Source: Candidatus Omnitrophota bacterium
Lineage (GTDB): Bacteria; Omnitrophota; Gorgyraeia; Gygaellales; Profunditerraquicolaceae
Assembly (NCBI GenBank): GCA_041662125.1
Contig: JBAZTA010000003.1
Coordinates: 264,962-328,961 of the forward strand
Direction: 5' to 3'
DNA length: 64,000 bases
Positions 1 to 64,000 of this stretch are shown one piece after another. Both the position numbers and the translations under genes were made by a program. The notes beneath the pieces are model-generated. The model searched no databases. It saw only the letters and a list, made by a program, of their open reading frames with translations, and was not told the DNA's origin. Each line of letters begins with the position of its first letter. The stretch's first letter is position 1.

Positions 1-28
1 GGGATCTTGGCTGGTGTTATTCATACGC

Positions 29-466
29 CTATTTCCAGGTGTAAGGAATTCTCTTATCGGAAGGCTCTGTCCTTATGATTTCATCCGGGTCGTGAGGAAT
101 ATCTGCGCAGTTGGCGATCAATGAAGGAATTTCTGCTGTGCCTTTAAATCCATACCATAATAGCGCGGGTATCTTAACTAAACAATAATTATCTTCCCCA
201 ATTTCCAGCTCCATACAAACCCCTTGACTGGAAGACTGCGCCCGGTCATCGTATATAACCAAGGCGATCTTTCCTACGGGGACCGCGAAATATTGTGTCA
301 TTTTTAAATGTTTTTTCCAGGCTTTTACTGCACCGCTGTTCACGGTAGAAAAATATATTTCTCCGAATTTGCTAAAATAAGGTGAATCACAACGCATCAT
401 ACGCATGACCTTGCCGCGTTCATCCTGAAGAATTTTTAGTTTTTCTACCAAGACACCATTAACCAT
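29..466 (-). CDS. Small cupin-fold sugar-nucleotide 3,5-epimerase / 3,4-ketoisomerase-like protein (RmlC/FdtA superfamily)
   Basis: 145 aa. 'LQDERGKV' resembles the DxRG substrate-binding motif of the RmlC family. Size and beta-rich pattern resemble FdtA/RmlC-like cupins. Lies directly downstream of CDP-glucose 4,6-dehydratase. Confidence 0.5.
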   Translation of the reverse strand: MVNGVLVEKLKILQDERGKVMRMMRCDSPYFSKFGEIYFSTVNSGAVKAWKKHLKMTQYFAVPVGKIALVIYDDRAQSSSQGVCMELEIGEDNYCLVKIPALLWYGFKGTAEIPSLIANCADIPHDPDEIIRTEPSDKRIPYTWK

Positions 467-469
467 AGG

Positions 470-1600
470 TCACTCTTTTGCCCAGGGAAGATTAACTCTC
501 TTTGCCACAGACACATAAAATTCAATTTGTTTAATGGTAAACTCCAGCATATTGGCATTATTATTCTTGTGTTTATAATATTCTTCATACCATTCAGCTG
601 CCATCTTAATAGTATCGGAAAAAGGAAGCAGCGCGTACCAATCTAAGTATTTAAGAGCTTTATCACTGGAGACTTTTAAAAAAATGCATTCTTTCGTAAC
701 TGGCTGCTGCTTGGAATACTTCCAATTATTAGTGCCACTAAAATATTTTGAGAATGTTTTAATCAGCTCGCCTACTGATTTGCTCATCTTATAGTCAGGC
801 CCGAAATTAAAAGATTCACCGCTTAATTTATTAGATTCCGCGCATTTAGCTCCCAGCCATAAATAACCGCTCAAAGGCTCAAGGACATGCTGCCAGGGCC
901 TGGTCGCCTTAGGATTGCGGACATAGACTGTCTTATTCTGGCTCCATGCCCGAACACAATCAGGCACCAAACGGTCAGTTGCCCAATCACCTCCCCCGAT
1001 AACGTTACCAGCACGGGCGGTAACCATTCTACCCCGTTTATCAAGCCTGTTAAAAAAAGATGAGTGATACGCAAAACTCACCAGCTCAGCACACGCTTTT
1101 GACGCGCTATACGGGTCTTTTCCGCCAAGTACGTCGCTCTCACGGTACCCCCAACTCCATTCCATATTCTTATAACATTTATCACTGGTAATGATCACGG
1201 CAACCGCATCGGATACGTATTTACGCATACATTCCAAAACATTAACCGTCCCTAAAACATTAGTCTCAAATGTCAATTTTGGGTCAGTAAACGCCTTACT
1301 GACGATCGGCTGGGCGGCAAGGTGAAAAATAAAATCCGGTTTATACTGAATAAAGACCTTCCGCAACGCTTCAAAGTTCCTCACATCGCCGTTAATATGC
1401 TTAATATGCTTGTCAATAGAACAGACCGAAAATAAACACGGGTTTGATGGCAGGTAGGCTGAATATCCAATGACCTCTGCCCCTAATAACTTCAGCCAAA
1501 TCGAAAGCCATGACCCTTTAAAGCCGGTATCACCGGTAACTAAAACCCGTTTACCTTGATACGCATTCTTAAATATAGATTTGTTATTTTTTTTCTTCAT
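470..1600 (-). CDS. rfbG: CDP-glucose 4,6-dehydratase
   Basis: 376 aa. N-terminal 'GKRVLVTGDTGFKGSWLSIWL' Rossmann motif is typical of CDP-glucose 4,6-dehydratases. Extended SDR with YxxxK ('YSASKACAEL'). Confidence 0.8.
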   Translation of the reverse strand: MKKKNNKSIFKNAYQGKRVLVTGDTGFKGSWLSIWLKLLGAEVIGYSAYLPSNPCLFSVCSIDKHIKHINGDVRNFEALRKVFIQYKPDFIFHLAAQPIVSKAFTDPKLTFETNVLGTVNVLECMRKYVSDAVAVIITSDKCYKNMEWSWGYRESDVLGGKDPYSASKACAELVSFAYHSSFFNRLDKRGRMVTARAGNVIGGGDWATDRLVPDCVRAWSQNKTVYVRNPKATRPWQHVLEPLSGYLWLGAKCAESNKLSGESFNFGPDYKMSKSVGELIKTFSKYFSGTNNWKYSKQQPVTKECIFLKVSSDKALKYLDWYALLPFSDTIKMAAEWYEEYYKHKNNNANMLEFTIKQIEFYVSVAKRVNLPWAKE

Positions 1601-1648
1601 ATTTTAGCTCCTGAATGCATTATATCGAGTAACGACGAAACCGACAAG

Positions 1649-2779
1649 TCATTTTTTACTAAAGAAATCCTTGATTTTCTTTATAATAAACGCTTGGGTA
1701 TTATTCTTTATATCCGGATGAAGCGGGATGCTCAGCAATTCCTCGTAAATTTCTTCGGTTACCGGTAAATGCTTTCCCTTTGAACCAAAATATGTAAGCA
1801 GATGATTCGGATAATAATGCACGCCGCATTCTATACCGCAACCAAGCAAATAACTCCTTAAATCGTTTCTCTTTCCTTCACGTACCCGGATAGAAAATAT
1901 ATGCGGGACAATTTTCTCATAATCATCAGGAAATAACGTTAATTCTTTTATTGCCGATAATGCCTGAAAATACCGTTTTGCCAGTTTTTGACGGCTTGGT
2001 TTAAATTCATTTTCAAACCTTTTGAATTGCGCAATGCCTATTGCCGCAAATAGATTGCTCATATGATACCGGTACCCCTGGTGAAAAACATCAAACTTCC
2101 AGCTGCGCTCTCCAGAATACCTTTTTTCAGTATCGTTATGCACTCCTAAAAGTCGGGCATCCTTGATTATTCTGATAACTTTTGCATCTTTAGTTACTAT
2201 CGCCCCCCCCTCACCGCAGGTAATATTTTTTATACCATCAAAACTAAAACAAACCACATCTCCAAAAGAACCAACCAGCCTGCCTTTGTAAAAAGTTCCA
2301 AACGCGTGAGCCGCGTCTTCAACAACTCTCAAGCCATGTTTACGGGCAAACGCGTATACCTCATCCAGATTCCCTGTCCTGCTGGCATAATGGACAGGCA
2401 TGATTGCTTTAGTCTTCTTGGTTAATCGACCAGCCGCATCCTTAAGGTCAATAGTCACAGTTGCGGGGAGGATTTCGCAGGGAACAGGCCGCGCGCCTAC
2501 CGCGCTGATAGCCTGAAAACAAGCAACAAAGGTAAGCGACTGCACCAAAACTTCATCTCCGGGCCCGATACCAATGCCCATGAGCGCCAGATGCAATGCC
2601 GCAGTGCCCGAATTAACACAGATGACCTCTCTGCCGCCAAAATACTCACCGAGTGTTTTCTCAAACTCACAGACGAACTTCCCCATACCCAGGTAAGATC
2701 CATCGATAACCTTACCGAGTGCTTTTTTCTCAGCTCTGCCAACGACCGATTTCGAAAGCCGGATCATTTTATTTTTCAT
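1649..2779 (-). CDS. DegT/DnrJ/EryC1/StrS-family PLP-dependent sugar aminotransferase
   Basis: Typical N-terminus 'MIRLSKSVVGRAEKKALGKVIDGSYLGMGKFVCEFEKTL'. Active-site lysine context 'FSFDGIKNITCGEGGAIVT' has Lys rather than His, so aminotransferase rather than E1 dehydrase. Start set at the ATGA-coupled Met; the alternative ATG at 2767 is equally possible. Confidence 0.75.
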   Translation of the reverse strand: MKNKMIRLSKSVVGRAEKKALGKVIDGSYLGMGKFVCEFEKTLGEYFGGREVICVNSGTAALHLALMGIGIGPGDEVLVQSLTFVACFQAISAVGARPVPCEILPATVTIDLKDAAGRLTKKTKAIMPVHYASRTGNLDEVYAFARKHGLRVVEDAAHAFGTFYKGRLVGSFGDVVCFSFDGIKNITCGEGGAIVTKDAKVIRIIKDARLLGVHNDTEKRYSGERSWKFDVFHQGYRYHMSNLFAAIGIAQFKRFENEFKPSRQKLAKRYFQALSAIKELTLFPDDYEKIVPHIFSIRVREGKRNDLRSYLLGCGIECGVHYYPNHLLTYFGSKGKHLPVTEEIYEELLSIPLHPDIKNNTQAFIIKKIKDFFSKK

Positions 2780-4275
2780 CGTACTTTTGACCAATCCTTC
2801 CTGCTGATAAAATTAAATATCTTTTTAAGGAAATACCCTGGATCTTTCAATAATTTTGATATAACCACCGCAATAAAACCAAGAGGATCCTTTTTTAGGA
2901 AAGTAAGTAAAAGAAACCGCTGTCCCTCAGCAAGGATTTTCTTGAGTTTTGTGCCATCCATCACTTCAGTTGAAATAGAGAAACTCCTGATATAAAGGTC
3001 ATCAAGTGAAAAATCAGGCCGCAGGAACCCTTTCTCTTTACATAATTTAAAAAGTTCCGAACCGGGATATGGAGTGGCTATCGATATATGCGGAGTAAAA
3101 ACCCCCAGGCTCGCGGAAAAACGAAAACTTTCCCATATTTGCTCTTGCGTTTCGTACGGCATGCCAACGACCAGAAAAATCCCGATACGCAGCCCTATCT
3201 TTTTCGCATACCTTACCAAGGGCGAGACTTTTTTAAGGTCAAGCGGCTTTTTGATGATCGTATTAAGGACTTTCTGGCTCCCGGACTCAAGAGCGAAATT
3301 AAGAGAATGGCAACCGCTTTGCTTCATTTTATTAATAAGGCTTTCATTTAATGTCCACGCGGCGATTCCATTAGGAGTATCCCAAACCAATCCCAATTTA
3401 TCCCTGCACATCCCCTCAAAAATATTATATGCGCGAGAAGGATCCAGGGTAAGGTTATCATCTTCAAACATAATTTCTTCTATCCCGTATTGAGTTTTCA
3501 AAAAGCTCAGTTCACGCAAAACATTTTCCGGTGAACGCGTGCGAAAAGCGCGCCCCCATACCGCGTAGGCAGAACAGAAAGTGCACTGCGCGGGGCATCC
3601 GCGCGAAGTTATAACAGGCGCGAATCTTTTTTTTCGCCTTTCACCGTGAGAAGACTTTAATCCAAAATACTTCTCCATGCTCAAAAGATGCCAGGCAGGA
3701 AACGGCAGAGCGTCAAGGTCTTCAATGAACCTCTTTTTCGGTATTACCTTGACAACACCCTTATCTTTATATCCGACGCCATCAAGCGTTGAAAAATCTT
3801 GATTTCCCTCAATACATGCTATCAAATCAAGGAGAGTTCTCTCACCTTCCCCCAGAACGACATAATCAACAAACTCATCTGCAAGGACCAACTCGGGCAT
3901 CACCGTAGGATGAGCGCCTCCCGCAAGGGTTATGGTTGCCTGGTCAATTTTCTTAGCAATTTCATAAATTTTATGCGCGCATTTTCGCTGTTTCGTAAAT
4001 AAATTGTTAACGCCAACAATATCCGGCTTGTAGTCGCTGGTAATTGCTTCTATCGTCTCAAAAGGCAAACCGATACGGATTGAGTCTTCCGACACACTGA
4101 CTCTGGTATCCCAACCTTCAATCAAAGCATCAATTATCTTTACTTCAATCCCTTTTTTTTCAAGAACCGCGGCTAAATACCCGAGTCCTAAAGGCGGCAT
4201 AGGATTAATATCGATCCTGTCTTTAAAGGTAATCGCAGGAGGATTAAATAAAAGGACTTTTTTGATCTTTTTCAT
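2776..4275 (-). CDS. B12-binding-domain radical SAM enzyme (class B, putative methyltransferase/other radical tailoring)
   Basis: 499 aa. N-terminal cobalamin-binding-like domain followed by radical SAM CxxxCxxC 'CPAQCTFC'. Confidence 0.75.
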   Translation of the reverse strand: MKKIKKVLLFNPPAITFKDRIDINPMPPLGLGYLAAVLEKKGIEVKIIDALIEGWDTRVSVSEDSIRIGLPFETIEAITSDYKPDIVGVNNLFTKQRKCAHKIYEIAKKIDQATITLAGGAHPTVMPELVLADEFVDYVVLGEGERTLLDLIACIEGNQDFSTLDGVGYKDKGVVKVIPKKRFIEDLDALPFPAWHLLSMEKYFGLKSSHGERRKKRFAPVITSRGCPAQCTFCSAYAVWGRAFRTRSPENVLRELSFLKTQYGIEEIMFEDDNLTLDPSRAYNIFEGMCRDKLGLVWDTPNGIAAWTLNESLINKMKQSGCHSLNFALESGSQKVLNTIIKKPLDLKKVSPLVRYAKKIGLRIGIFLVVGMPYETQEQIWESFRFSASLGVFTPHISIATPYPGSELFKLCKEKGFLRPDFSLDDLYIRSFSISTEVMDGTKLKKILAEGQRFLLLTFLKKDPLGFIAVVISKLLKDPGYFLKKIFNFISRKDWSKVR

Positions 4276-5486
4276 AACAAATTATAGTATTTTTCAGCCA
4301 TAACCCCTGCTTGAAACATATGATTCAACCGATCATAACCCTTTTCAACCATAGTATTGGATAGAGTAGCATTATTCAATATTTGTTTCATGGCGCAAGC
4401 TAATTGTTGAGAATTATTTGGTTCAACAATTAACCCTGCATCACCTAATACTTCAGGAATACCGCCAACGTCAGAAGCGATTACAGGTTTTTTATAAAGC
4501 ATTGCTTCAAGTAAAACCATTCCAAAACTCTCATAATTAATTGAGGGAAAAACAAACACATCAAAGCATTCAATGTATTCCCAGGCAGCATCGAGATACC
4601 CGGTTAAAAAAACCTTTTTTTCAAGGCGAAGCTCTTGGATAAGTTTATTTAAAGTAATTGCGTGCGCAAAAGCATCACTTCCTATAATAACTAGTTTTGA
4701 GTGCGGAAATTCATCCTGAATTTGATAAAACGCCCTGATAAGATATTCGTGGCCTTTTCTTTCCTCATAATCGCCAATGCAACCAATAATTTTGCCTGCT
4801 CCATCTAATTTCAGCGTATTCCTTTTATCTCTCAGGGATAAATGAGCGGTTCTCTCAGTAATAATGCCATTATATATATACGTTATTTTCTGGGCAGTCA
4901 GAAACCTTGTTTCTTTAAGCTGCTTGGCGCAAGAAGAAGAAACACAAATAATTTGCGAACAAGAATGATCAATCCACGCATCTATAATTCGGTCAAAAAT
5001 TCTAAAAGGCCACTGAGAGATCGTAGCGTTGTTGTGGATAACAAGAAATATCTTTTTTATCCTCGCCAATCGAGCGGCAACCACAAAAGAAAGACTTAAT
5101 TCAGCTGCCGGATAGCCGCCATTATGAGAAAATACAACTTCGAATTTATCTTTTTTTAATTTAAAATAGAATATGATTATTGAATATAAAAAAATAGGAA
5201 ATTTTAATACACTCGCTATTTTTCGCAGCTTCCAGCAAAATTGAGAGAAGCCAGAGGTTGCCCCTCTCTTAAGACTTGTGAAATTAATATCGCTCGTAGC
5301 CAATACATGAATTTGTTTTACCTTCAGGCCCCCGGCATCATAGACATACTTTCCTTTATGGCCTTTATTAAGCCACACCTCACAATGATCATTTTTAGCC
5401 GGCCATGCCTTAATCAAATTTACTAAAACGGTATCTACTCCTCCTATTTCCCGGCTCGAATAAAAGAAAACGATTTTTTTAGCCAT
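4272..5486 (-). CDS. Glycosyltransferase family 4 (GT-B, retaining)
   Basis: 404 aa. C-terminal EX7E-type motif region 'FPSINYESFGMVLLEAMLYKKPVIASDVGGIPEVL'. Confidence 0.75.
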   Translation of the reverse strand: MAKKIVFFYSSREIGGVDTVLVNLIKAWPAKNDHCEVWLNKGHKGKYVYDAGGLKVKQIHVLATSDINFTSLKRGATSGFSQFCWKLRKIASVLKFPIFLYSIIIFYFKLKKDKFEVVFSHNGGYPAAELSLSFVVAARLARIKKIFLVIHNNATISQWPFRIFDRIIDAWIDHSCSQIICVSSSCAKQLKETRFLTAQKITYIYNGIITERTAHLSLRDKRNTLKLDGAGKIIGCIGDYEERKGHEYLIRAFYQIQDEFPHSKLVIIGSDAFAHAITLNKLIQELRLEKKVFLTGYLDAAWEYIECFDVFVFPSINYESFGMVLLEAMLYKKPVIASDVGGIPEVLGDAGLIVEPNNSQQLACAMKQILNNATLSNTMVEKGYDRLNHMFQAGVMAEKYYNLL

Positions 5487-5498: not shown

Positions 5499-6383
5499 TT
5501 AACAAACCAAACATTGCCAACCCCATTGCTTAAATTCTGGAACGCTAAAAGAAGATTCTAAAGAAGCAAGATAATTAGGCGCTCCCGGATTGAGCGCTTC
5601 AAGTGTTTTAAGAGGGATCAATTTCACGCCTTTTATTCCCCAGGATATATAGAAAATAGTATACCCGAATCCCTCTAAATACTTATGCACAGAATCTCCG
5701 GCTCCAACAAGATTTTCATAGACGATATTTTTAATCATCTTTTGCCGTAACAAATTCTGCGCACCTTCCAACACTCTTAACTCATGCCCCTCGACATCAA
5801 TCTTTACCAATGATACGCTCTGCTTTGAAACAATTTCATCTAAGGTAGTTGTCATGGCAGGAATCCCTTGAGATTGATCATCTGAAAGATACGATGTACC
5901 CCAACTTTTCAAAATGTCGTCTTCATTAAAAGAAACAAGGCGTTGTTCTTTTCTTGCATTACTGAGCGCAGCATTAAATATCGTTATTTTTCCTGCTTTT
6001 TTGTTTTGCTTGAACAATTGAACATTATCCTTCAATACACTAAATACAAATTGATGCGGCTCAAAAGCTAAAACAGTCCCGGTTGTCCCACAGCGGCTTG
6101 CCATAATACTCGTCATATACCCGACATTGGCTCCTACATCAATAACCAGATCTCCCGGTTTGATAAGCCTCCACAACACTTCGCTCACCTCTAATTCAAA
6201 AATACACCGGTACCATAACGATAGCCCAACCGCTTCCCGGACATCAACCTTAATTTCCATGCCCCAGGGTAAAGCAAGTTTTCGCATTCTTGCTTTTTTA
6301 CAGAATGTTCCGCGCAACAATCGAATAAACAGTTGTTGCGGCCTGAATACGTAATAAGGTTGAAAAGGATTTCGAATTTTCAT
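5499..6383 (-). CDS. FkbM-family SAM-dependent methyltransferase
   Basis: 294 aa. 'LVIDVGANVGYMTSIMA' is characteristic of FkbM-family MTases. Confidence 0.7.
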   Translation of the reverse strand: MKIRNPFQPYYVFRPQQLFIRLLRGTFCKKARMRKLALPWGMEIKVDVREAVGLSLWYRCIFELEVSEVLWRLIKPGDLVIDVGANVGYMTSIMASRCGTTGTVLAFEPHQFVFSVLKDNVQLFKQNKKAGKITIFNAALSNARKEQRLVSFNEDDILKSWGTSYLSDDQSQGIPAMTTTLDEIVSKQSVSLVKIDVEGHELRVLEGAQNLLRQKMIKNIVYENLVGAGDSVHKYLEGFGYTIFYISWGIKGVKLIPLKTLEALNPGAPNYLASLESSFSVPEFKQWGWQCLVC

Positions 6384-6407: not shown

Positions 6408-7148
6408 TTATTTTTTCAACATAGCTTGCCTTACTCCATACCGTATATCAAGCAACAGCTCCCAGGCATAACGCAAGAATACAGTTACAAGCCTTTTAAG
6501 CTTTTGCGCGATAACCTGTTTTCTTGACATCTTATCAATTGGGTTTTGCGGCTCATCAGAAGTTTGCTGTTGAGGAATTACAAATTTACCGATGCTTTTC
6601 AACTTCTTCGCAACGATCCAGATCACAATATCCTCTCCGCGGGCAGGATCCTTAATAATATTTCCATAAACCGTACTGAACTTTAAATATATGACCTGAA
6701 AATTATTTGATTCCAGCGCACCTCGTATCGCTACAGGATTTAACACATGCAATCCGTGTCCGAAAAATCCGTTTACCGCTGTAACCAACACGTAAGCGCC
6801 GCCAACTTTTACCATACGCAAGCAATTCTCAATGCACTGCCTTGTGTCAAAAACATGTTCTAAACATCCTATATCGAAAACGACATTATATTTCTCATTT
6901 TCTTCTCGGGGAACAGGCAAATTCATATCATATTTTAAATCTGCCCTCTCATCAAAATAATCCAATGTCGAAATCTCAGATACTCCTTTTGCAACCAGCA
7001 ACTCCTTAACATCTTTGTATTCAAATTCATTGGAAGCACCACTTGCGTCAAAAACCTGATACCCAAACATCAAAAAAGGCCCTTTTAAAATTCCCGGGAT
7101 ACTGAATATTTCGTTACAAATAGGCATAAGAGCTTTTGATAACGCCAC
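6408..7148 (-). CDS. Hypothetical protein, methyltransferase-like with degenerate motif I
   Basis: 246 aa. 'VVFDIGCLEHVFD' resembles class-I MTase motif III, but no clear GxGxG. GTG start preceded by strong SD 'AGGAGGAG'. Confidence 0.35.
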   Translation of the reverse strand: MALSKALMPICNEIFSIPGILKGPFLMFGYQVFDASGASNEFEYKDVKELLVAKGVSEISTLDYFDERADLKYDMNLPVPREENEKYNVVFDIGCLEHVFDTRQCIENCLRMVKVGGAYVLVTAVNGFFGHGLHVLNPVAIRGALESNNFQVIYLKFSTVYGNIIKDPARGEDIVIWIVAKKLKSIGKFVIPQQQTSDEPQNPIDKMSRKQVIAQKLKRLVTVFLRYAWELLLDIRYGVRQAMLKK

Positions 7149-23825: not shown

Positions 23826-23826
23826 A

Positions 23827-56575: not shown

Positions 56576-57574
56576 TTATTCCTTACTTAAGAAATGAAAC
56601 CAATCTTTGGTGGCTTCGTTAATGGATTCAGGCGTCCATACCGGCGCCCTTTTCCAATAATCAATATTTTTCAGTAAAATCGAGACGCCTTTTTCCAAAG
56701 AAACTTCAGGCGACCATTTAAGTTTTGCCCTGATCTTTGCAATATCAGCAAACGTGCAATCAGGTTCACCCGGCCTTTTGGGAATATACGTAACCGGCCC
56801 CGCTAAAAGCTCAACCAGCCGCTTGACGCTATAGGTATTGCCGCTGCCAACATTGAATATTTCATTCCTACAATCTGACTCTGCCGCAGCAAGAAACGCA
56901 GATGCAACGTCTCCGGCATACGTAAAATCACGGGTTTGCAAACCATCCCCTACCACCGTAAAAGGTTTACCCGCCAATTTCTGAGCGAGAAATACGCCAA
57001 AAACTGCTCCATAGGTTCCCGAAGTACGAGACCGCGGGCCATACACATTAAACAACCGTAACGATACAACCGGCAATTTATATACCTGGCCCCAATGCAA
57101 CGCAATCGACTCTCCTAAATATTTAGTAAGCGCGTAAGGATACTGCGGCCGGATATCCGCAGTCTCAGGGGTGGGAAACGTATCAGGGATGCCATAACAA
57201 GATGATGAAGCGGTATACACAAACTTTGTAAGCTTGGGGCAAACTTGCCGGACAACTTCCAGGACACTTATTGTCCCATCAACATTAGCACGGTGATACG
57301 TCAGCGGATTAACGATCGAAGGGACAATATCTGCCAAAGCAGCCAAATGGAACACACAAGAAACATCTTTAAAATACGGCTTTATTTTCTTCATATCGTT
57401 TACATCTGACTCTACCAGAGTCAGCGCCGGATTACCTTTCAAAAAGTCAAGGTTATCAGGCCTACCCGTTGAGAAATTATCAATGACGCAAACCCGGTAC
57501 CCTTTTTCCAGCAATACTTCAGTTACGTGGCTGCCGATAAACCCGGCGCCGCCGGTAACAACCGCATTTTTCAT
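56576..57574 (-). CDS. NAD-dependent epimerase/dehydratase (GalE/UXS-like extended SDR)
   Basis: 332 aa. 'AVVTGGAGFIGSHVTEVLL'. 'DNFSTGRPDNL'. 'YALTKYLGE'. Confidence 0.7.
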   Translation of the reverse strand: MKNAVVTGGAGFIGSHVTEVLLEKGYRVCVIDNFSTGRPDNLDFLKGNPALTLVESDVNDMKKIKPYFKDVSCVFHLAALADIVPSIVNPLTYHRANVDGTISVLEVVRQVCPKLTKFVYTASSSCYGIPDTFPTPETADIRPQYPYALTKYLGESIALHWGQVYKLPVVSLRLFNVYGPRSRTSGTYGAVFGVFLAQKLAGKPFTVVGDGLQTRDFTYAGDVASAFLAAAESDCRNEIFNVGSGNTYSVKRLVELLAGPVTYIPKRPGEPDCTFADIAKIRAKLKWSPEVSLEKGVSILLKNIDYWKRAPVWTPESINEATKDWFHFLSKE

Positions 57575-58821
57575 ACTTTCTCCAGCACTTCTTTTGAATG
57601 AATTTTTAATTGAGGAATAGCGGTCACAAATTCACCTCCCCATTCCCGGATAAACGACATTTGTTCCATGATCTCTTCTTTAATGTTCCAGGGCAAGATC
57701 AAGACATAATCAGGCTTGGTTTCTTTTATTTTCTCCGGATTTTCAATAGGGATATGGCTTCCGGGGAGAAAACTCCCTTGTTTATGCGGATTTTTATCTA
57801 CCGTATAGGGAATATCAGCCGTACCTATACCGCAATAATTTAAAAATGTGTTTCCTTTCGCAGGGGCACCGTATCCAACAATAGTCTTTCGCTGGCGTTT
57901 AAGACCGGCGAGAAAATCAATGGTGTCTTGTTTAATCCTTTGCACGTTATTTTGGAATGCTCTATACGCATGAATACTGCCAAAACCGCCAGCCAATTCT
58001 TTAGCCTTGAGAGCAGATACCCTGTTTGAAACTCCTTTTTCCTGATCAGAGGAATGGCGAGCATAGATCCGTAACGACCCTCCATGAGTCGGCAGCTCTT
58101 CGACGTCAAATATCGTTAGCGCCTGTCGCGTAAATATTTTTTCTACGGTAATAAAAGAAAGGTAGGAAAAATGCTCATGATAAATAGTATCAAATTGATT
58201 ACCCTGGACCAGCTGCATCAAATGTGGGAATTCCATCGTAATAACTCCCGCCGGCTTTAAAAGGATCTTCAGGCCTTTGACGAAATCATTGATATCCGGG
58301 ACATGCGCCAGGACATTATTGCCTACCAGCAGGTCGGCAGCAAACCCTTCCTCTTTTAACCGTTTGGCAGTGGCTTCGCTAAAAAAAATCACTTGCGTAG
58401 GAACGCCGCTGCGATTAGCAACTAAAGCGACATTAGCCGCCGGTTCGATCCCCAGGACAGGGATCCCCTTATCGATAAAATTCTTCAACAGGCAACCATC
58501 ATTGCTGGCTATTTCAACAACTCGCGAGGTCCCGGAAAGAGAAAACATGCTCGCCATTTGATCAGCGTAAGCTTTTGTGTGTTTAAGCCAGGTATCTGAA
58601 TAAGAAGAAAAATAAGCATAATCGCTGAAGATCTTCTCCGGGCTTTCATATTCAGGAAGCTGCACCAGGAAACAATCCCCGCAGACATAAACATCCAACG
58701 GGAAACGAAGCTCTTTACGCTGCACATCTTGCTTACGCAAAAAGGCATTTGATAACGCAGACTCCCCCAGAGAGACAAAAAGAGTTTCTAATCTGCTGCT
58801 ACAAAACCTGCACTGCATCAA
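57571..58821 (-). CDS. NDP-hexose C-methyltransferase (TylC3-type), second copy
   Basis: 416 aa. 'CRFCSSRLETLFVSLGESALSNAF' N-terminal zinc-ribbon/substrate region of the C-methyltransferase family. Confidence 0.65.
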   Translation of the reverse strand: MMQCRFCSSRLETLFVSLGESALSNAFLRKQDVQRKELRFPLDVYVCGDCFLVQLPEYESPEKIFSDYAYFSSYSDTWLKHTKAYADQMASMFSLSGTSRVVEIASNDGCLLKNFIDKGIPVLGIEPAANVALVANRSGVPTQVIFFSEATAKRLKEEGFAADLLVGNNVLAHVPDINDFVKGLKILLKPAGVITMEFPHLMQLVQGNQFDTIYHEHFSYLSFITVEKIFTRQALTIFDVEELPTHGGSLRIYARHSSDQEKGVSNRVSALKAKELAGGFGSIHAYRAFQNNVQRIKQDTIDFLAGLKRQRKTIVGYGAPAKGNTFLNYCGIGTADIPYTVDKNPHKQGSFLPGSHIPIENPEKIKETKPDYVLILPWNIKEEIMEQMSFIREWGGEFVTAIPQLKIHSKEVLEKV

Positions 58822-58836
58822 TATATAAAGTAGGAT

Positions 58837-59610
58837 TTATTTCCATATTTTCCAAGGCGCCTCATCAGATCTCCAGAGCCTATCTAACTCAACCTTGTCG
58901 CGCAACGTATCCATGCATTTCCAAAACCCGCCGTGCTTGTAAGCGTTAAGTTGTTTACGCGTCGATAATTGTTCCAAAGACTCTTTCTCCCAAATACTCT
59001 CATCATTCTTGATATAATCAAATACTCCCGGTTCCAATACAAAAAACCCGCCATTAACCCAGTCACCATCTCCTTGGGGCTTTTCCCGAAACGAAAGGAC
59101 ATTATGCTTATCATCTAAAGCCAGCGCTCCAAAACGGGCATACGGTTTGACCGCGGTAACGGTCGCGAGTTTTCCTTTCTTTTTATGAAACTCCACAAGT
59201 TTCTTTATGTTAACGTTGCTGACGCCGTCGCCGTAAGTCAACATGAACGTATTATCCGCGATGTAATTTTTGATACGTTTGATCCTGCCTCCTGTCATCG
59301 TATTTAAGCCCGTATCAATCAGCGTAACTTTCCATGGCTCTGCTTTTGACCCCAAAACTTTAATTTTATTCTTCTCTAAATCAATGGTCACATCGCTGGA
59401 ATGTAAAAAGATATTCGCGAAATATTCTTTGATCATAAACCCCTTATATCCAAGGCATATAATAAAATCGTTAAAACCATAACTTGAAAAAATCTTCATA
59501 ATGTGCCACAGGATCGGCTTCTCTCCAATTTCTACCATTGGCTTGGGCTTTAAATCGGTTTCTTCGCTTAAACGAGACCCGATCCCACCAGCTAAAATAA
59601 CCACTTTCAT
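58837..59610 (-). CDS. rfbF: Glucose-1-phosphate cytidylyltransferase
   Basis: 257 aa. 'VVILAGGIGSRLSEETDLKPKPMVEIGEKPILWHIM' is highly characteristic of the RfbF/DdhA family. Confidence 0.8.
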   Translation of the reverse strand: MKVVILAGGIGSRLSEETDLKPKPMVEIGEKPILWHIMKIFSSYGFNDFIICLGYKGFMIKEYFANIFLHSSDVTIDLEKNKIKVLGSKAEPWKVTLIDTGLNTMTGGRIKRIKNYIADNTFMLTYGDGVSNVNIKKLVEFHKKKGKLATVTAVKPYARFGALALDDKHNVLSFREKPQGDGDWVNGGFFVLEPGVFDYIKNDESIWEKESLEQLSTRKQLNAYKHGGFWKCMDTLRDKVELDRLWRSDEAPWKIWK

Positions 59611-59770: not shown

Positions 59771-59798
59771 ATTATACCGCTCCAAGCAAACAAATCAA
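59771..59798 (-). promoter_or_regulatory. Candidate sigma70-type promoter TTGATT-N16-TATAAT (minus strand) upstream of rfbF
   Basis: Reverse complement of the gap reads 'cTTGATTtgtttgcttggagcggTATAATataac'. Located about 160 nt upstream of the rfbF start. A GAAACT-aacg-AGTTTC hairpin lies in the leader. Confidence 0.35.
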
Positions 59799-59811
59799 GC
59801 TTTTTAGATAT

Positions 59812-59970
59812 TTAGAACAAAGTATAAATAAACGGGGCAACGCTAGAAGACTCAAAGAAAATAATGAGGAATCCAAGCAATAACAACATGATAACAATAG
59901 GGGTAAGCCACCAGCGTTTCCTTACTTTTAAGAAATCCCACAATTCTTTAACTAACGCTATCTTTCCCAT
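59812..59970 (-). CDS. Small single-TM protein, SxtK/DUF5989-like (conserved carbamoyltransferase-associated ORF; absent from the ORF track)
   Basis: Hand-translated 52 aa: MGKIALVKELWDFLKVRKRWWLTPIVIMLLLLGFLIIFFESSSVAPFIYTLF. Conserved '...WxFLKxRKxWWLxPI...APFIYTLF' pattern. Confidence 0.6.
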   Translation of the reverse strand: MGKIALVKELWDFLKVRKRWWLTPIVIMLLLLGFLIIFFESSSVAPFIYTLF

Positions 59971-59981
59971 AAAAACTCCTT

Positions 59982-60383
59982 TTAATACTGTTTTTCAAAA
60001 TTTCCCTCTTCCCCATTTTCAGGATTACTCACCCAGTATGAAGATCCCGGTTTGGCTGTCTTTACATCCAGAAACTCTTTGCGCAGTGCCTTCATCACAA
60101 AACTAAGAGGAAACAATATACCATAAAAAATGCCAAAAAGTATGATCCGAATATTAAGCCAGCTAAGAACAGTACCAATCTTGACTGCCAGGAAATAATC
60201 AAAACGCATGTATCGGGGCAAGAAAACCGCGCAAATCAAAACAACAAGAGCGCAAACATTAAAACAAAAAGACAAAAGCATATTTCCTTGCAGAAATTTA
60301 AGTATACCCCACAATAACAGTAAAACGGCCGTTGATAGACCAAATCTCTTTACTTTAGAAAGTTCAATCCGGTTCAAATTCAT
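59982..60383 (-). CDS. SxtJ-like small membrane protein (carbamoyltransferase-associated)
   Basis: 133 aa, 3-4 TM segments. 'KRFGLSTAVLLLLWGIL'. Overlaps the carbamoyltransferase stop by 20 nt. Sits between the carbamoyltransferase and the SxtK-like ORF. Confidence 0.5.
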   Translation of the reverse strand: MNLNRIELSKVKRFGLSTAVLLLLWGILKFLQGNMLLSFCFNVCALVVLICAVFLPRYMRFDYFLAVKIGTVLSWLNIRIILFGIFYGILFPLSFVMKALRKEFLDVKTAKPGSSYWVSNPENGEEGNFEKQY

Positions 60384-62193
60384 TACTCTTTCCTCTCTTA
60401 TTCAAAGGTTTTTGCTGTTGAGCCTTATCTACCAGAAAACTACCCATCATAAGATAATCCATATCAGTGCGCATAAAACACTCATAGGCTTCTTGAGGTG
60501 AACAAACAATTGGCTCTCCCCGCACATTAAATGAAGTATTGATCACCATAGGGCAAGCCGTCAAAGAATAAAACTCGTTAATCAGATCGTAAAACAACCA
60601 ATTAGATTCTAACGTGACAGTTTGCAGGCGCGCCGAATAATCGACGTGAGTAACCGCCGGGATCTCTGATCTTTTAATCTTCAACTTATTTATTCCCGAG
60701 AGCCTGTTTTGCTCTTCACGGATAGGAAGGCGCAATCTTTCCTTAAGAGGGACCGTCATAAGCATATAGGGGCTATCGCCGTCAAAATCAAAGTAGTCCC
60801 TCGCTTTATCAGCTAATACCGCCGGCGCGAAAGGACGAAACGATTCCCTGAATTTGATCTTAACGTTAAGCATTGACTGCATGGTAAGGCTGCGAGGATC
60901 CGCTACAATAGACCGGTTGCCTAAAGCGCGCGGGCCAAATTCCATTCGCCCCTGAAACCAACCCAAAACTTTTTGCTCGGCAATGATCCGGGCAGCTACC
61001 TTTGCTTGCTGCACCCTTTCTATAGCCTCATAAACAACCCCCTGTTCTTTGAGGAAAACCTCGATCTTGGCATTACTGAACTCAGGCCCCAGTAACGACG
61101 AACGCATCGCGTCATGGACGCCATCAGCAAGCCTTTCTTTTCTTAAATACCCATACCATGCCGCAAACGCTGCCCCCAGAGCGCCTCCTGCGTCTGTCGC
61201 AGCAGGCTGCACCCATATTTTCTTAAAAGGGCCGTCTTTGGCGATCAAACCGTTAGCCACGCAATTTAAGGCGACACCTCCTGCCAGGCACAAATATTTC
61301 TGGCCTGTTTGTCTATAGACATGCCGCGCGATTTTAAGCATTATTTCTTCAGTCACGGCCTGTATTGAACGGGCAATATCCATATGGCGCTGTTCCAGAA
61401 CGTCTTTATCCGGCCTGCGGGGTTTTCCGCCGAATAAAACGTGGAATTTATTATTGGTCATGGTTAAACCAACACAATAATTAAAATATTTCATATTTAA
61501 CTGAAACGAGCCATCTTCTTTTATATCCACCAATTCTTTTTTAATTACGTCAACATAGGCTGGTTCTCCGTAAGGCGCTAACCCCATAAGCTTATATTCG
61601 CCGGAATTCACGCGAAACCCGACATAGTAAGTAAATGCTGAATAAAGCAGCCCTAACGAATGAGGGAATTTGATCTGTTCAACAAGCGATATACGATTCC
61701 CTTTTCCAATTCCAAAACTGGCAGTCACCCATTCACCCACCCCATCCATAGTTAAAATCGCTGCTTCCTCGAATGGGCTGGGATAAAAGGCGCTTGCCGC
61801 GTGAGATTCATGGTGGCCGTTAAACAATATCCGGGGATGGTGTGAAACTTTTTCTTCAATGAGGCTTTTTATGAATAGTTTTTGCTTAGCCCATACGGGC
61901 ATCGATTTTGAAAAAGAAAGAAAACCGCGGGGGGCATACTGAAAATACGTCGCAAGAAGCCTTTCAAATTTTATAAAAGGCTTTTCGTAAAAACTAATAT
62001 AGTTTATTTCTTGGGGACTGATACCTACTTCACGCAGGCAATAGGAGATCGCCTGTTCAGGAAAATCCGCGTCATGCTTTTTACGGGTAAACCGCTCTTC
62101 CTGGGCTGCGGCAATGATCACACCGTTTTTCAAGAGGGCGGCGGCAGAATCATGATAAAAGGCAGATATTCCCAGGATATAAATATCGCGCAT
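60364..62193 (-). CDS. O-carbamoyltransferase, NodU/CmcH family
   Basis: 'ILGISAFYHDSAAALLKNGVIIAAAQEERFTRKKHD' is the canonical N-terminus of the NodU/CmcH/TobZ family. About 609 aa. Start trimmed to 'MRDIYILG'. Confidence 0.8.
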   Translation of the reverse strand: MRDIYILGISAFYHDSAAALLKNGVIIAAAQEERFTRKKHDADFPEQAISYCLREVGISPQEINYISFYEKPFIKFERLLATYFQYAPRGFLSFSKSMPVWAKQKLFIKSLIEEKVSHHPRILFNGHHESHAASAFYPSPFEEAAILTMDGVGEWVTASFGIGKGNRISLVEQIKFPHSLGLLYSAFTYYVGFRVNSGEYKLMGLAPYGEPAYVDVIKKELVDIKEDGSFQLNMKYFNYCVGLTMTNNKFHVLFGGKPRRPDKDVLEQRHMDIARSIQAVTEEIMLKIARHVYRQTGQKYLCLAGGVALNCVANGLIAKDGPFKKIWVQPAATDAGGALGAAFAAWYGYLRKERLADGVHDAMRSSLLGPEFSNAKIEVFLKEQGVVYEAIERVQQAKVAARIIAEQKVLGWFQGRMEFGPRALGNRSIVADPRSLTMQSMLNVKIKFRESFRPFAPAVLADKARDYFDFDGDSPYMLMTVPLKERLRLPIREEQNRLSGINKLKIKRSEIPAVTHVDYSARLQTVTLESNWLFYDLINEFYSLTACPMVINTSFNVRGEPIVCSPQEAYECFMRTDMDYLMMGSFLVDKAQQQKPLNKRGKSNEFEPD

Positions 62194-62198
62194 AAGTT

Positions 62199-63296
62199 TT
62201 ACTTCTTTCGTTTCATACGCTCTTTCCAAGCGGCATAGATCTCTCGCACGGAATCTTCAAGGGTATAGGTATGCTTCCATGCAGGATACTGTTCTTTAAA
62301 CTTGGAAACATCACTGATCCACCAAATATGGTCACCTTGACGAGGTACAGCGGCATAGTGGCAGCTCATTTTATCCCCCGAAACCTTTTCGCAAAGCGCA
62401 CGTGCCTCCCGGATTGAAACATGAGCAAAGCGCCCGCCTCCGATGTTATAAACTTCGCCCTGCCGCGGTTTTTTATAAAACTGATAAAAGGCAGAAACCA
62501 GATCGTAGGCGTGTATAGTATCACGGACCTGTTTACCTTGGTAACCGTTGATCACGTAGGTGCGTTTTGAAATACAGCATTGAACCATATATGACAAAAA
62601 CCCATGCATTTTGACTCCGGACTGAGCAGGGCCACTCACACATCCAAGCCTAAAAACGCCTGTTTTAAGGCCGAAATATTTTCCATATTCCTGAGTCATC
62701 ATATCAGCTGAAAGCTTAGATACTCCCATTAAACTATGCATACATTGATCAACGGGCATTGTTTCATTAATGCCTTTATAATAGGCATGCCTTTTCGACA
62801 GGTCATAACGACTCTCTGATTCTTCAAAAGGCAGATCATTTGGCCTGTCGCCATAAACTTTATTGGTAGAAGTAAGGATAAATACTGCGCGGGGACAATG
62901 TCGCCTCAGCGCCTCTAGTATACCTACTGTCGAACGGGCATTAATATCAAAATCAACCAGCGGCGCTGATGCAGCCCAATCATGAGACGGTTGAGCTGCC
63001 GTGTGAACGACTAATTGTATAGAACTTTTATACTTCTTAAAAAGTGAATTGATCTTATTTTGGTCGCGGATATCAAACCAAGCCTGGCGGTACCGGGGAA
63101 GATCCTTCACAAGCATATCGCGGGTTTTGAGTATACTGCCGCCCTTGCCAAAAAAGGTTTGACGCATGTTATTATCGATCCCAATTACATCAAAGCCTTT
63201 TTCACAAAAAAAACGGGCTGTCTGGGAACCGATGAGCCCGCAAGAGCCAGTAACTATTACGATTGGCACGATTTCAAGTCTCCAGTCTCTGAGCAA
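62199..63296 (-). CDS. CDP-paratose/tyvelose 2-epimerase-family (RfbE-like) extended SDR
   Basis: 365 aa. 'STNKVYGD' and 'NGYQGKQVRDTIHAYDLV...YNIGGG' match RfbE signature stretches. Confidence 0.65.
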   Translation of the reverse strand: MLRDWRLEIVPIVIVTGSCGLIGSQTARFFCEKGFDVIGIDNNMRQTFFGKGGSILKTRDMLVKDLPRYRQAWFDIRDQNKINSLFKKYKSSIQLVVHTAAQPSHDWAASAPLVDFDINARSTVGILEALRRHCPRAVFILTSTNKVYGDRPNDLPFEESESRYDLSKRHAYYKGINETMPVDQCMHSLMGVSKLSADMMTQEYGKYFGLKTGVFRLGCVSGPAQSGVKMHGFLSYMVQCCISKRTYVINGYQGKQVRDTIHAYDLVSAFYQFYKKPRQGEVYNIGGGRFAHVSIREARALCEKVSGDKMSCHYAAVPRQGDHIWWISDVSKFKEQYPAWKHTYTLEDSVREIYAAWKERMKRKK

Positions 63297-63306
63297 ACCT
63301 GAAAAT

Positions 63307-64000
63307 TTAACGGTTCTTGTAAAAAGCTGAAATATCTTCGCGTTTACTCGATAACCACTCTTGATGCTTGCGGCACCAGATGATAGTCGAACGTAATCCG
63401 GCAGGCAAATTAACCCTGGCTTTCCAGGCGATCTGGCGTTTCAGTTTCGATGAATCAAGGCGATAACGTATATCGTGGCCAGGCCTGTCTTTGACAAATT
63501 CTATCCTGCTCTGAGGAAGCGTTAAAATCGATAAGATCATTTTTGCTACTTCAATATTTTGTTTTTCGATACCGCTTCCCAGATTATAAACTTCGCCAAC
63601 GGTACCTTTCTTCATAATAGTAAGGATACCCAAAGCGCAATCTTCAACATAAAGCCATTCACGGACGTTTTTACCGTCCGCGTAAAGCGGCATTTTCTCA
63701 TTATGGAATAATTTCATGACCGAAAGGGGGATAAATTTCTCCGGATACTGCCAGGGCCCATAATTATTGCTGGGCCGAATGATGATCGCAGGAAAACGAT
63801 AGGTGCGCACATATGATTTTATCAGCAGGTCGGCAGCTGCCTTGGAAGCCGCATAGGGGCTGCTCGGATTAAGGGGGTCATTTTCAACAAATTTACCGCG
63901 CGCAATATCGCCATAGACCTCATCAGTTGAAATATGCACAAAACGTTTTACCCCAAACATGCGGGAAACAGCCAAAAGGACTTCTGTCCCGAGAATATTT
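63307..64000 (-). CDS. rmlB: dTDP-glucose 4,6-dehydratase (partial; N-terminus beyond window edge)
   Basis: 'HISTDEVYGD', 'SPYAASKAAADLL', 'SNNYGPWQYPEKFIP' RmlB motifs. The reading frame stays open to position 64000 ('NILGTEVLLAVSRMFG...'), so the gene is 5'-truncated. Confidence 0.8.
   Translation of the reverse strand, partial: NILGTEVLLAVSRMFGVKRFVHISTDEVYGDIARGKFVENDPLNPSSPYAASKAAADLLIKSYVRTYRFPAIIIRPSNNYGPWQYPEKFIPLSVMKLFHNEKMPLYADGKNVREWLYVEDCALGILTIMKKGTVGEVYNLGSGIEKQNIEVAKMILSILTLPQSRIEFVKDRPGHDIRYRLDSSKLKRQIAWKARVNLPAGLRSTIIWCRKHQEWLSSKREDISAFYKNR

Follow-up and report, generated by a model that had tools for sequence, protein, structure and literature searches.

The 64,000-bp window analysed here (positions 264,962 to 328,961 of contig JBAZTA010000003.1, assembly GCA_041662125.1, from a Candidatus Omnitrophota bacterium) is filled with genes for the activation, transfer and modification of sugars. 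Together with 9.5 kb read past its left edge (L001) and 1.5 kb past its right edge (L003, a 6-kb Logan contig), it is part of a glycan locus of at least 76 kb, both ends of which lie beyond the sequence read. All of the genes are on the minus strand, so that the left window edge is the downstream side and the right edge the upstream side. A model that had read the same letters (the original prediction) had proposed about 30 tailoring enzymes and several nucleotide-sugar pathways in one contiguous same-strand glycan locus, and the present analysis supports this; the glycan genes found on both flanks also bear out its expectation that the locus runs past both edges.

Organization of the locus

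The listing of the window holds 60 consecutive minus-strand open reading frames (ORFs) of at least 100 amino acids (aa), and the plus-strand ORFs are only short and embedded in them (Table 1). With starts adjusted by ribosome-binding-site spacing and homolog lengths, the final set comprises 61 genes and, at bases 1-24, the opening 8 codons of one more, a GT2 glycosyltransferase gene, matching the predicted count of about 61. Dense coding had also been predicted and is found, at 98.1% with the corrected starts instead of the proposed 95% or so; likewise there are ten four-base overlaps, as claimed, but nine are ATGA and one is GTGA. Overlaps number 15 in total, intergenic gaps have a median length of 11 bp and just 4 of them are longer than 50 bp. 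No tRNA or tmRNA gene, no Rfam family at gathering score and no repeat longer than 43 nt was found in the window, nor any transposase or integrase family among the 61 products (Pfam), in line with the predicted absence of RNA genes and mobile elements.

GC content ranges from 0.37 to 0.45 and GC skew is negative throughout the window. ORFs 5-12 (window 4272-13302) have a lower GC content (0.35-0.40, against a mean of 0.43 elsewhere), a pattern typical for the serotype-specific centres of O-antigen loci. These ORFs encode a GT4 glycosyltransferase, methyltransferases, a GT-B protein, a B12-binding radical S-adenosylmethionine (SAM) enzyme, Wzx and a SPASM enzyme.

JGI contig Ga0376277_0000172 (395,841 bp, sample 3300037810) and two Logan contigs from run SRR18595301 match the window with 100% identity. 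Proteins identical to ORF42 and ORF9 are labelled 'MAG: ... [Candidatus Omnitrophota bacterium]' at NCBI. The sample is 'SO_2017 GW1', from a groundwater well in a landfill study (bioRxiv 10.1101/2024.05.30.596742). Searching the species genomes with an exact 34-mer gave no match. Although the contig is metagenome-derived, the uniform composition, the two identical assemblies (JGI and Logan) and synteny with other metagenome-assembled genomes (MAGs) argue against a chimera, and gene order is kept in three other MAGs or contigs. That the block is an assembly artefact of this kind, or consists mainly of primary metabolism mis-read as glycan genes, is extremely improbable.

The two best minus-strand sigma-70-like promoter matches fall in the two largest gaps, while such matches are not above shuffles overall. 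No terminator-like site lies in any intergenic gap. In window 40001-60000, hairpins with T-runs number 35 against 22.7 ± 4.3 in shuffles, all of them weak and all inside genes. The RfaH ops antitermination element has one match, inside ORF18, which equals the chance expectation. The locus is probably one co-directional block with internal promoters, and because two strong sigma-70-like sites lie in the largest gaps, several transcription units rather than one operon are suggested.

Pfam was run on all products and NCBIfam on most. Only about 10 of the 61 products pass a curated family cut-off (ORF24, ORF23, ORF14, ORF56, ORF2, ORF39, the C-terminal TIGR04372 domain of ORF42, and, at the borderline, ORF35 and ORF49); the others are assignable to superfamilies only.

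Nucleotide-sugar pathways

ORFs 14-24 form a pseudaminic acid (nonulosonate) module. PseB, PseC and PseI pass their curated cut-offs, as expected from the predicted CMP-nonulosonate genes of Pse type. The cytidylyltransferase ORF19 scores 33 bits on the PseF model and matches only the generic CTP_transf_3 family. No PseH-type GNAT was found in the window with Pfam, and the formyltransferase-like ORF16 and ORF22 occupy the place of PseH. In one relative, a GNAT gene follows PseC.

CDP-hexose activation had likewise been predicted, and both ORF56 (glucose-1-phosphate cytidylyltransferase) and ORF2 (CDP-glucose 4,6-dehydratase) pass curated cut-offs. For C-3 deoxygenation of the E1/E3 type (RfbH/DdhC plus DdhD), the best RfbH scores are 181 (ORF23) and 148 (ORF3) bits against a cut-off of 423. 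Two C-methyltransferases, again as predicted, have PF08421 and PF08484 in common (ORF36 and ORF55). ORF55, which has the Zn-ribbon, SAM-binding and C-terminal domains of NDP-hexose 3-C-methyltransferases, is similar over its full length to TylC3 (264.6 bits) and TcaB9 (223.5 bits), and its closest characterised relatives are TylC3/KijD1/TcaB9.

The three predicted thiamine diphosphate (ThDP) systems are present as ORF28/29, ORF45 and ORF49/50. ORF45, a three-domain enzyme, keeps the GDG-x24-NN ThDP motif and scores 364 bits with JanthE (PDB 8rph), a YerE-like aldehyde-ketone carboligase (PMC12188165), against 313 bits with the best acetolactate synthase (ALS). On the ALS equivalog it reaches 452, below the cut-off of 538, and no IlvN (the ALS small subunit) occurs in the locus. 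A role for ORF45 as biosynthetic acetolactate synthase was rejected on these grounds; being closer to JanthE than to ALS, set among keto-sugar genes and without a small subunit, ORF45 is predicted to be a YerE-like carboligase. ORF49/50 and ORF28/29 are, by analogy, putative AviB1/AviB2-type E1-like branching pairs (PMC4753412), and no E2 or E3 partner was found in the 76 kb. ORF28, of the second pair (window 28342-30206), is 24.5% identical to ORF49 and is missed by Pfam default thresholds. Members of the E1, ALS-like and class-III aminotransferase families are also found in primary metabolism, but a primary-metabolic origin of the block is argued against by the missing E2/E3 and IlvN partners and by ORF45, which falls short of the ALS cut-off and has a YerE-like enzyme as its closest match.

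Genes for GDP- or ADP-heptose had also been proposed. The families were found; the curated assignment was not, as the four activities (ORFs 32, 33, 52 and 53) have family-level matches that all fall below curated cut-offs, and the substrate could be another sugar phosphate. ORF53 has its nucleotidyltransferase domain at residues 18-159 and its PfkB kinase domain at residues 188-500, the reverse of E. coli HldE, both below cut-offs. A homolog of ORF53 (46% identical) adjoins an ORF54-like short-chain dehydrogenase/reductase (SDR) gene in an Elusimicrobia MAG (L065).

The dTDP-hexose system that had been predicted is present but becomes complete only with the 1.5 kb past the right edge. In this flank rmlB (ORF60), rightly described as cut by the edge, is completed to 326 aa (Pfam) and is preceded by rmlD (PF04321) and the 3' end of rmlA, the RmlA C-terminus being assigned by translation only. 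All four proteins of the dTDP-L-rhamnose pathway, RmlA-D, are thus present, three of them at or beyond the right edge. PF00908 is present in the homolog of the small cupin ORF1 in one relative.

Flippases, glycosyltransferases and assembly genes

The original prediction had found no exporter, and this was wrong, since a Wzx-type flippase (ORF11) and the Wzx-like N-terminal half of ORF42 both lie inside the window. ORF42 (884 aa) combines a Wzx-like domain with 12 transmembrane (TM) helices at about residues 1-460 and a TIGR04372 glycosyltransferase domain at residues 653-854. Free-standing homologs of the membrane domain (ORF42-N; about 490 aa) are annotated as O-antigen export proteins. In GCA_028712255.1, a separate 421-aa copy of the C-terminal part, 54% identical, directly follows the fusion gene (L023 12586-13851), and in other relatives the same membrane domain is fused to a GT2 or a methyltransferase domain.

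The glycosyltransferase candidates are more numerous than the 3-5 that had been counted. ORF5, ORF38 and the C-terminal part of ORF42 are recognised by sequence and ORF9 and ORF25 by fold, and ORF31 is a weak candidate from its faint GT1 similarity. The model of ORF9 (pLDDT 92.6) matches GtfB, OleD and CalG4 (Foldseek E 1.6e-8), making it a GT-B glycosyltransferase candidate. ORF25 (481 aa) has a polytopic GT-C fold, with ALG12 as best match, and a conserved acidic residue in the first extracytoplasmic loop; its identity as Wzy was rejected on account of the GT-C fold. It belongs to a GT-C family without a match in the Pfam copy used, and a few of its homologs carry PF26516. In SO_2017_LW4_142 there are two tandem ORF25 paralogs, 47% and 44% identical to ORF25 (L104 8562-11329).

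Past the left edge, on the same strand, L001 contains in order a GT2 gene, an AsnB-like amidotransferase gene, a GT4 gene, a PF00953 transferase gene, a gene for a WbpM/PglF-like membrane dehydratase, a Wzy_C gene and a B12 radical SAM gene that runs off the end. The PF00953 (WecA/WbpL-type) initiating transferase has 334 aa and 10 predicted TM helices and lies about 4.1-5.1 kb past the edge (L001 15737-16741). The Wzy_C (PF04932) protein scores 83.9 bits (L001 18591-19862) and belongs to a family that also covers ligases and O-oligosaccharyltransferases. The statement that neither an initiating transferase nor Wzy is present therefore holds inside the window, but an initiating transferase and a candidate Wzy lie just past its left edge. 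With the GT2, the GT4 and the initiating transferase of this flank, glycosyltransferases total about 8-9.

The breadth of the Wzy_C family bears on the alternative that the product is a protein glycan (pilin, S-layer or general O-glycosylation), with the Wzy_C protein acting as a PglL-type oligosaccharyltransferase. It is established for PF04932 that the Wzy_C domain is common to PglL/PilO O-oligosaccharyltransferases; furthermore, pseudaminic acid is typical of protein glycans and the fold of ORF25 also matches oligosaccharyltransferases. However, the compact ORF25 is without the large C-terminal periplasmic domain of PglB/AglB/STT3 and best matches ALG12, no pilin, flagellin, maf or S-layer genes occur in the 76 kb, and the initiating transferase beside a WbpM-like dehydratase recalls the wbpL-wbpM pair of Pseudomonas aeruginosa O-antigen loci. 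A protein glycan is rather unlikely.

Tailoring enzymes

The window encodes 12 extended SDRs and 1 classical one, so that the abundance of SDRs had been noticed correctly but their number (11) was too low. Besides the two C-methyltransferases there are 7 firm SAM methyltransferases and 1 weak one, slightly fewer than the at least 9 that had been claimed. Four radical SAM enzymes (2 B12-binding and 2 SPASM), two formyltransferase-like proteins (ORF16 and ORF22) and a carbamoyltransferase (ORF58) agree with the predicted complement. ORF58 matches Carbam_trans_N with 341 bits and Carbam_trans_C with 239 bits, and its closest solved structures are GdmN, NovN and TobZ. Recent internal duplication was rejected as the source of the many SDRs, methyltransferases and radical SAM enzymes, as no pair of paralogs exceeds 39% identity.

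For several enzymes the nearest homologs with a known function belong to antibiotic pathways, namely TylC3/TcaB9, NovN/GdmN/TobZ, AprD4 and AviB1/B2-type E1 pairs (PMC4753412), and orthosomycin-type clusters also hold E1-like pairs, C-methyltransferases and many SDRs. Against a secondary-metabolite cluster with an oligosaccharide or aminoglycoside-like product stand the lack of polyketide synthase, nonribosomal peptide synthetase, aglycone, oxygenase, resistance or regulator genes and the presence of Wzx, the PF00953 transferase, Wzy_C, Pse genes and the GT-C enzyme. Such a cluster is very unlikely.

Related loci and the ORF42-N family

A JGI contig with an ORF42 homolog 82% identical has nearly the same gene order from the E1-alpha gene to the AsnB/GT4 region. 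It differs by a GNAT gene after PseC, by the lack of the second heptose-type block and by extra B12 radical SAM and NUDIX genes. GCA_028712255.1 (L023) and SO_2017_LW4_142 (L024 and the overlapping L104), the latter from the same landfill, have ORFs 50 to 31 in order with 53-90% aa identity. In SO_2017_LW4_142 one B12 radical SAM gene stands in place of ORFs 30-27, the GT-C gene is duplicated, a different NeuB-type module replaces the Pse module, and Wzx is only 40% identical to ORF11. Because ORFs 50-31 are kept while the Pse module and Wzx are replaced, the locus is a stable scaffold whose upstream cassette is conserved and whose nonulosonate/flippase/glycosyltransferase part varies, as in serotype-determining loci. 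This fits the hypervariable polysaccharide cassettes of about 25 kb that recent preprints describe for Omnitrophota.

Eighty genome loci with an ORF42-N homolog were examined with 10-kb flanks; they include Omnitrophota, Nitrospirota, Acidobacteriota, Planctomycetota, Desulfobacterota and Proteobacteria. The full ORF42-type fusion occurs in only 8 of the 80. Homologs of ORF43 (Zn-dependent alcohol dehydrogenase) and ORF44 (methyltransferase) are each linked to ORF42-N in about 25 of the loci, homologs of ORF56 and ORF2 (CDP-glucose pathway) and of ORF45 (ThDP) each in about 20, and an E1 pair in 7. As ORF56 and ORF2 lie 58 kb apart, this linkage ties the two ends of the window together functionally. 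The recurring neighbours suggest that a CDP-hexose branching pathway, so far uncharacterised and served by a flippase-like partner of its own, is widespread.

A bolder reading, which we consider tentative and improbable, is that ORF56/55/2 with ORFs 50-43 make an undescribed CDP-sugar, C-methylated and branched by two ThDP systems, for which ORF42 is a loader-flipper and which ORF25 adds to the glycan in the periplasm. The TIGR04372 domain of ORF42 may then load the sugar on polyprenyl phosphate and the fused Wzx-like domain flip it. If true, this would be a three-part decoration system resembling Gtr/Arn but made of unrelated families, and the ORF42-N family with its CDP, ThDP, alcohol dehydrogenase and methyltransferase neighbours would extend it to many phyla.

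Proposed function of the locus

What the data show is the set of enzyme families, the extension of the locus beyond either edge of the window and the same architecture in related MAGs. The window is probably the middle 64 kb of a locus that has its genes on one strand and extends over at least 76 kb. The product of the locus would be a surface glycan that is lipid-linked, heavily tailored and made by a Wzx-dependent route of the O-antigen or capsule type.

Under this model, cytoplasmic modules would make five or six activated sugars. The first would be a CMP-pseudaminic-acid derivative whose N-acyl groups are remodelled by products of the deacetylase, formyltransferase and aminotransferase genes among ORFs 14-24. 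CDP-4-keto-6-deoxyglucose from ORF56 and ORF2 would be C-methylated by ORF55 and aminated by ORF3, and a carbon side branch would be added to the CDP-sugar by ORF45 and ORF49/50 and then reduced by ORF43 and ORF47. One or two nucleotide-heptoses or related sugars may come from ORFs 52-53 and 32-33 and may be reworked by SDRs, the RmlC-type epimerase and the second C-methyltransferase (ORFs 34-37). Sugars of the dTDP-rhamnose type would be supplied by rmlA, rmlD, rmlB and ORF35, and a UDP-2-acetamido-2,6-dideoxyhexose by the WbpM-like enzyme downstream. The PF00953 transferase would start the unit on undecaprenyl phosphate, about seven glycosyltransferases would extend it, and O-/C-methyl-, formyl- and carbamoyltransferases, the AsnB-like amidotransferase and radical SAM enzymes would decorate it. 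Wzx (ORF11) would then flip the unit across the membrane, where the Wzy_C protein may polymerise or ligate it and ORF25 may add a residue periplasmically from a polyprenyl-phosphate donor.

Several points weigh against this model. The 76 kb read show no gene for Wzz, Wza/Wzc, a WaaL-specific protein or an ABC exporter, so that the glycan may be an O-antigen, a capsule or a protein glycan. The Wzy_C family includes ligases and O-oligosaccharyltransferases. Both locus ends lie beyond the sequence read, and genes for Wzz or Wza/Wzc may lie further out. The substrates are guesses because the heptose genes, PseG, PseF and most SDRs score below curated cut-offs, and the pathway model is built from the enzyme families. 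In addition, the locus may have more than one product, given its two Wzx-like proteins and two good promoter-like sites.

This last point leads to a composite locus, in which at least two distinct glycan pathways adjoin on the same strand and draw on common precursor genes, for example an O-antigen and a second lipid-linked sugar for periplasmic decoration or a capsule. The two Wzx-type domains (ORF11 and the N-terminal half of ORF42) and the strong promoter-like sites in the 129-bp and 201-bp gaps would fit such an arrangement, as would the independent variation of the modules, seen in SO_2017_LW4_142, and the need of the GT-C enzyme for its own polyprenyl-phosphate-sugar donor. However, only one initiating transferase is seen in the 76 kb, the 8-9 or so glycosyltransferases roughly match five to six sugar pathways and thus fit one complex repeat unit, and the CDP-pathway genes at both ends (ORF56 at 59 kb and ORF2 at 1 kb) tie the ends together. 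A composite locus is possible but the less likely arrangement.

Comparison with known systems

The rfb (lipopolysaccharide O-antigen) locus of Leptospira is likewise very long, with many sugar-tailoring genes and a Wzx/Wzy-type route, and most of its genes are on one strand. It belongs to another phylum and has other gene content, and we know of no report of an E1-pair plus YerE-like cassette or a Wzx-glycosyltransferase fusion in it. Strains are reported to differ in the length of this locus, which ranges from about 4 kb to more than 100 kb (PMC13111663). Of the proposed single locus building an exceptionally decorated glycan, the single locus therefore stands, but 'exceptional' needs tempering in view of these lengths, and the locus may make one glycan or several.

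Like the B-band locus of P. aeruginosa and other Wzx/Wzy O-antigen loci, the Omnitrophota locus has Wzx, a WecA/WbpL-family transferase beside a WbpM-type dehydratase, an AsnB-like amidotransferase, a lower-GC centre with flippase and glycosyltransferase genes, and pseudaminic acid genes (the sugar is found in some P. aeruginosa serotypes). The B-band clusters carry wzx/wzy, with wbpL-wbpM at the 3' end. The Omnitrophota locus is 3-5 times longer, with no Wzz seen, and has a GT-C enzyme, four radical SAM enzymes and three ThDP systems. As in the capsule heptose-modification pathway of Campylobacter jejuni, an isomerase, a kinase, a phosphatase and a nucleotidyltransferase are followed by SDRs and an RmlC-like cupin epimerase, and PseB, PseC and PseI are shared with this species. 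In contrast to C. jejuni, the heptose-type genes are all below cut-offs, the domain order of ORF53 is reversed relative to HldE, the window is without the GNAT PseH, and the 76 kb read show no KpsMT ABC exporter.

YerE-type acyl branching acts on CDP-linked sugars in Gram-negative O-antigens (PMC4753412; PMC9306805). The yersiniose/erwiniose (YerE/YerF) systems resemble the locus in CDP-glucose formation and 4,6-dehydration, a YerE-like carboligase and nearby NAD(P)H reductases (PMC9306805; PMC4753412); the Omnitrophota locus differs in being without the E1/E3 (DdhC/DdhD) pair and in having a TylC3-type C-methyltransferase and AviB1/AviB2-type E1 pairs, which have been described for Gram-positive antibiotic pathways (PMC4753412). 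Hypervariable polysaccharide cassettes of about 25-26 kb have been reported in Omnitrophota (bioRxiv 10.64898/2026.05.20.726742; 10.64898/2026.06.07.730766). They share the phylum and the single variable surface-polysaccharide locus per genome, but are about a third of the present size and contain Wzc, ligase, AlgI/J and heptosyltransferase genes, not Pse, CDP and ThDP modules. The locus resembles a Wzx/Wzy O-antigen or capsule locus and is best seen as an oversized example of this known kind, not as a new class of system. Its chemistry joins elements known separately: the Pse pathway, YerE-type branching, AviB1/B2-type E1 pairs, TylC3-type C-methylation and TobZ/NovN-type carbamoylation.

Omnitrophota, most of them ultra-small, are uncultured bacteria, and next to nothing is known of their cell surface. 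In a genome of about 2 Mb, a locus of at least 76 kb amounts to a few percent, and such an investment in one-strand glycan genes implies strong selection on surface chemistry, such as evasion of phages or predators or attachment to hosts. The locus is also a compact source of enzymes without curated assignment, including GT-C and GT-B families without a Pfam model and a flippase-glycosyltransferase fusion, and the recurring CDP-hexose/ThDP cassette could lead to new branched sugars and biocatalysts.

Table 1. Features of the window in order of position; scores are given against the curated cut-off of the family model where one applies.
Feature	Position	Strand	Assignment	Support or remark
GT2 gene start	1..24	-	GT2 glycosyltransferase, 8 codons (MNNTSQDP)	runs off left edge
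ORF1	29..466	-	small RmlC-like cupin, candidate NDP-ketohexose epimerase/isomerase	PF00908 23.5 bits vs 27
ORF2	470..1600	-	CDP-glucose 4,6-dehydratase	TIGR02622 447.7 bits vs 278
ORF3	1649..2779	-	DegT/DnrJ/EryC1 sugar aminotransferase	
ORF4	2776..4275	-	B12-binding radical SAM enzyme	closest solved structure AprD4 (sugar diol-dehydratase)
ORF5	4272..5486	-	GT4 glycosyltransferase	Pfam
ORF6	5499..6383	-	FkbM-family methyltransferase	Pfam
ORF7	6408..7148	-	faint class-I methyltransferase similarity	E about 1e-3
ORF8	7218..8150	-	class-I SAM methyltransferase	Pfam
ORF9	8182..9318	-	GT-B (GT1-like) glycosyltransferase fold	no family match
ORF10	9349..10737	-	B12-binding radical SAM enzyme	
ORF11	10748..12259	-	Wzx-type flippase	PF01943, PF13440, MatE; about 12-14 TM helices
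ORF12	12283..13302	-	radical SAM/SPASM enzyme	
ORF13	13299..14300	-	radical SAM/SPASM enzyme	32% identical paralog of ORF12
ORF14	14313..15374	-	pseudaminic acid synthase PseI	TIGR03586 492 bits vs 340
ORF15	15391..16089	-	PIG-L family de-N-acetylase	Pfam
ORF16	16086..16787	-	formyltransferase-like	Formyl_trans_C_2
ORF17	16800..17519	-	WbqC-family protein	Pfam
ORF18	17516..18559	-	PseG-like UDP-sugar hydrolase	TIGR03590 124 bits, below 153.6
ORF19	18569..19342	-	CMP-sugar (nonulosonate or Kdo type) cytidylyltransferase	generic CTP_transf_3
ORF20	19346..20248	-	aldo/keto reductase	Pfam
ORF21	20264..21580	-	class-III aminotransferase (GSA aminomutase-like)	
ORF22	21598..22635	-	formyltransferase	N- and C-terminal domains
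ORF23	22668..23840	-	PseC aminotransferase	TIGR03588 484 bits vs 423.5
ORF24	23827..24828	-	PseB, inverting UDP-GlcNAc 4,6-dehydratase	TIGR03589 505 bits vs 408
ORF25	24917..26362	-	polytopic membrane protein, GT-C glycosyltransferase fold	compact ALG/PimE/ArnT type
ORF26	26373..27413	-	class-I SAM methyltransferase	Pfam
ORF27	27400..28329	-	extended SDR	
ORF28	28342..29280	-	diverged E1-beta-like subunit	partner of ORF29
ORF29	29277..30206	-	ThDP-dependent E1-alpha-like subunit	GDG...NN motif
ORF30	30214..31110	-	extended SDR	
ORF31	31140..32231	-	large uncharacterised family	faint GT1 C-terminal similarity
ORF32	32260..33252	-	GHMP kinase, HddA-like	152 vs 600
ORF33	33249..34469	-	sugar-1-phosphate nucleotidyltransferase fused to GmhB-like HAD phosphatase (HddC-GmhB)	GmhB 146 vs 178
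ORF34	34456..35343	-	extended SDR	
ORF35	35355..35915	-	RmlC-type 3,5-epimerase	TIGR01221 156.4 bits vs 155.75 (borderline)
ORF36	35918..37165	-	NDP-sugar C-methyltransferase	Methyltransf_13/14 architecture
ORF37	37170..38222	-	extended SDR	
Promoter-like site	38279..38307	-	sigma-70-like, TTGACT-17-TATAAT, 11/12	129-bp gap upstream of ORF37; pattern match only
ORF38	38352..39506	-	GT2 glycosyltransferase	Pfam
ORF39	39503..40756	-	NanM-like putative sugar O-methyltransferase	TIGR04371 60 bits vs 44
ORF40	40771..41658	-	class-I SAM methyltransferase	
ORF41	41669..42580	-	extended SDR	
ORF42	42616..45270	-	Wzx-like membrane domain fused to TIGR04372 glycosyltransferase	
ORF43	45260..46303	-	Zn-dependent alcohol dehydrogenase, candidate side-chain ketoreductase	
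ORF44	46335..46994	-	class-I SAM methyltransferase	
ORF45	47028..48812	-	YerE/JanthE-like ThDP carboligase	ALS superfamily
ORF46	48809..49510	-	class-I SAM methyltransferase	Pfam
ORF47	49541..50356	-	classical short-chain dehydrogenase	
ORF48	50381..51379	-	RmlB-like NDP-hexose 4,6-dehydratase-type SDR	below cut-off
ORF49	51391..52452	-	E1-beta (transketolase-like) subunit	321.3 bits vs 321
ORF50	52471..53436	-	ThDP-dependent E1-alpha subunit	289 bits (alpha)
ORF51	53447..54454	-	extended SDR	
ORF52	54461..55039	-	SIS-domain GmhA-like sugar-phosphate isomerase	92 vs 209
ORF53	55045..56571	-	HldE-like bifunctional protein, reversed domain order	187 vs 521
ORF54	56576..57574	-	extended SDR	
ORF55	57571..58818	-	NDP-hexose 3-C-methyltransferase (TylC3/KijD1/TcaB9 type)	
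ORF56	58837..59610	-	glucose-1-phosphate cytidylyltransferase	TIGR02623 427 bits vs 300
Promoter-like site	59771..59798	-	sigma-70-like, TTGATT-16-TATAAT, 10/12	201-bp gap upstream of ORF56; pattern match only
DUF5989 gene	59812..59970	-	membrane peptide, 52 aa	in only large gap
ORF57	59982..60383	-	SxtJ-like small membrane protein	
ORF58	60364..62193	-	O-carbamoyltransferase (NodU/TobZ/NovN/GdmN family)	
ORF59	62199..63269	-	extended SDR	
ORF60	63307..64000	-	RmlB-type dTDP-glucose 4,6-dehydratase	5' end cut by window edge

Additional observations

A 9-kb contig (L025, CAZPNW010000169.1) carries an ORF42 homolog about 80% identical with the same neighbours and is labelled 'uncultured Planctomycetales', which is probably a binning or labelling problem, or else reflects recent transfer. 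The tandem SPASM pair ORF12/13 (window 12283-14300) sits between PseI and Wzx and is kept in the closest relative; the pair has no identified counterpart among characterised sugar-modifying enzymes, its similarity to BtrN being weak and confined to the SPASM domain. Genes for the SxtJ-like and DUF5989 membrane proteins (59812-60383) directly follow the carbamoyltransferase gene ORF58.

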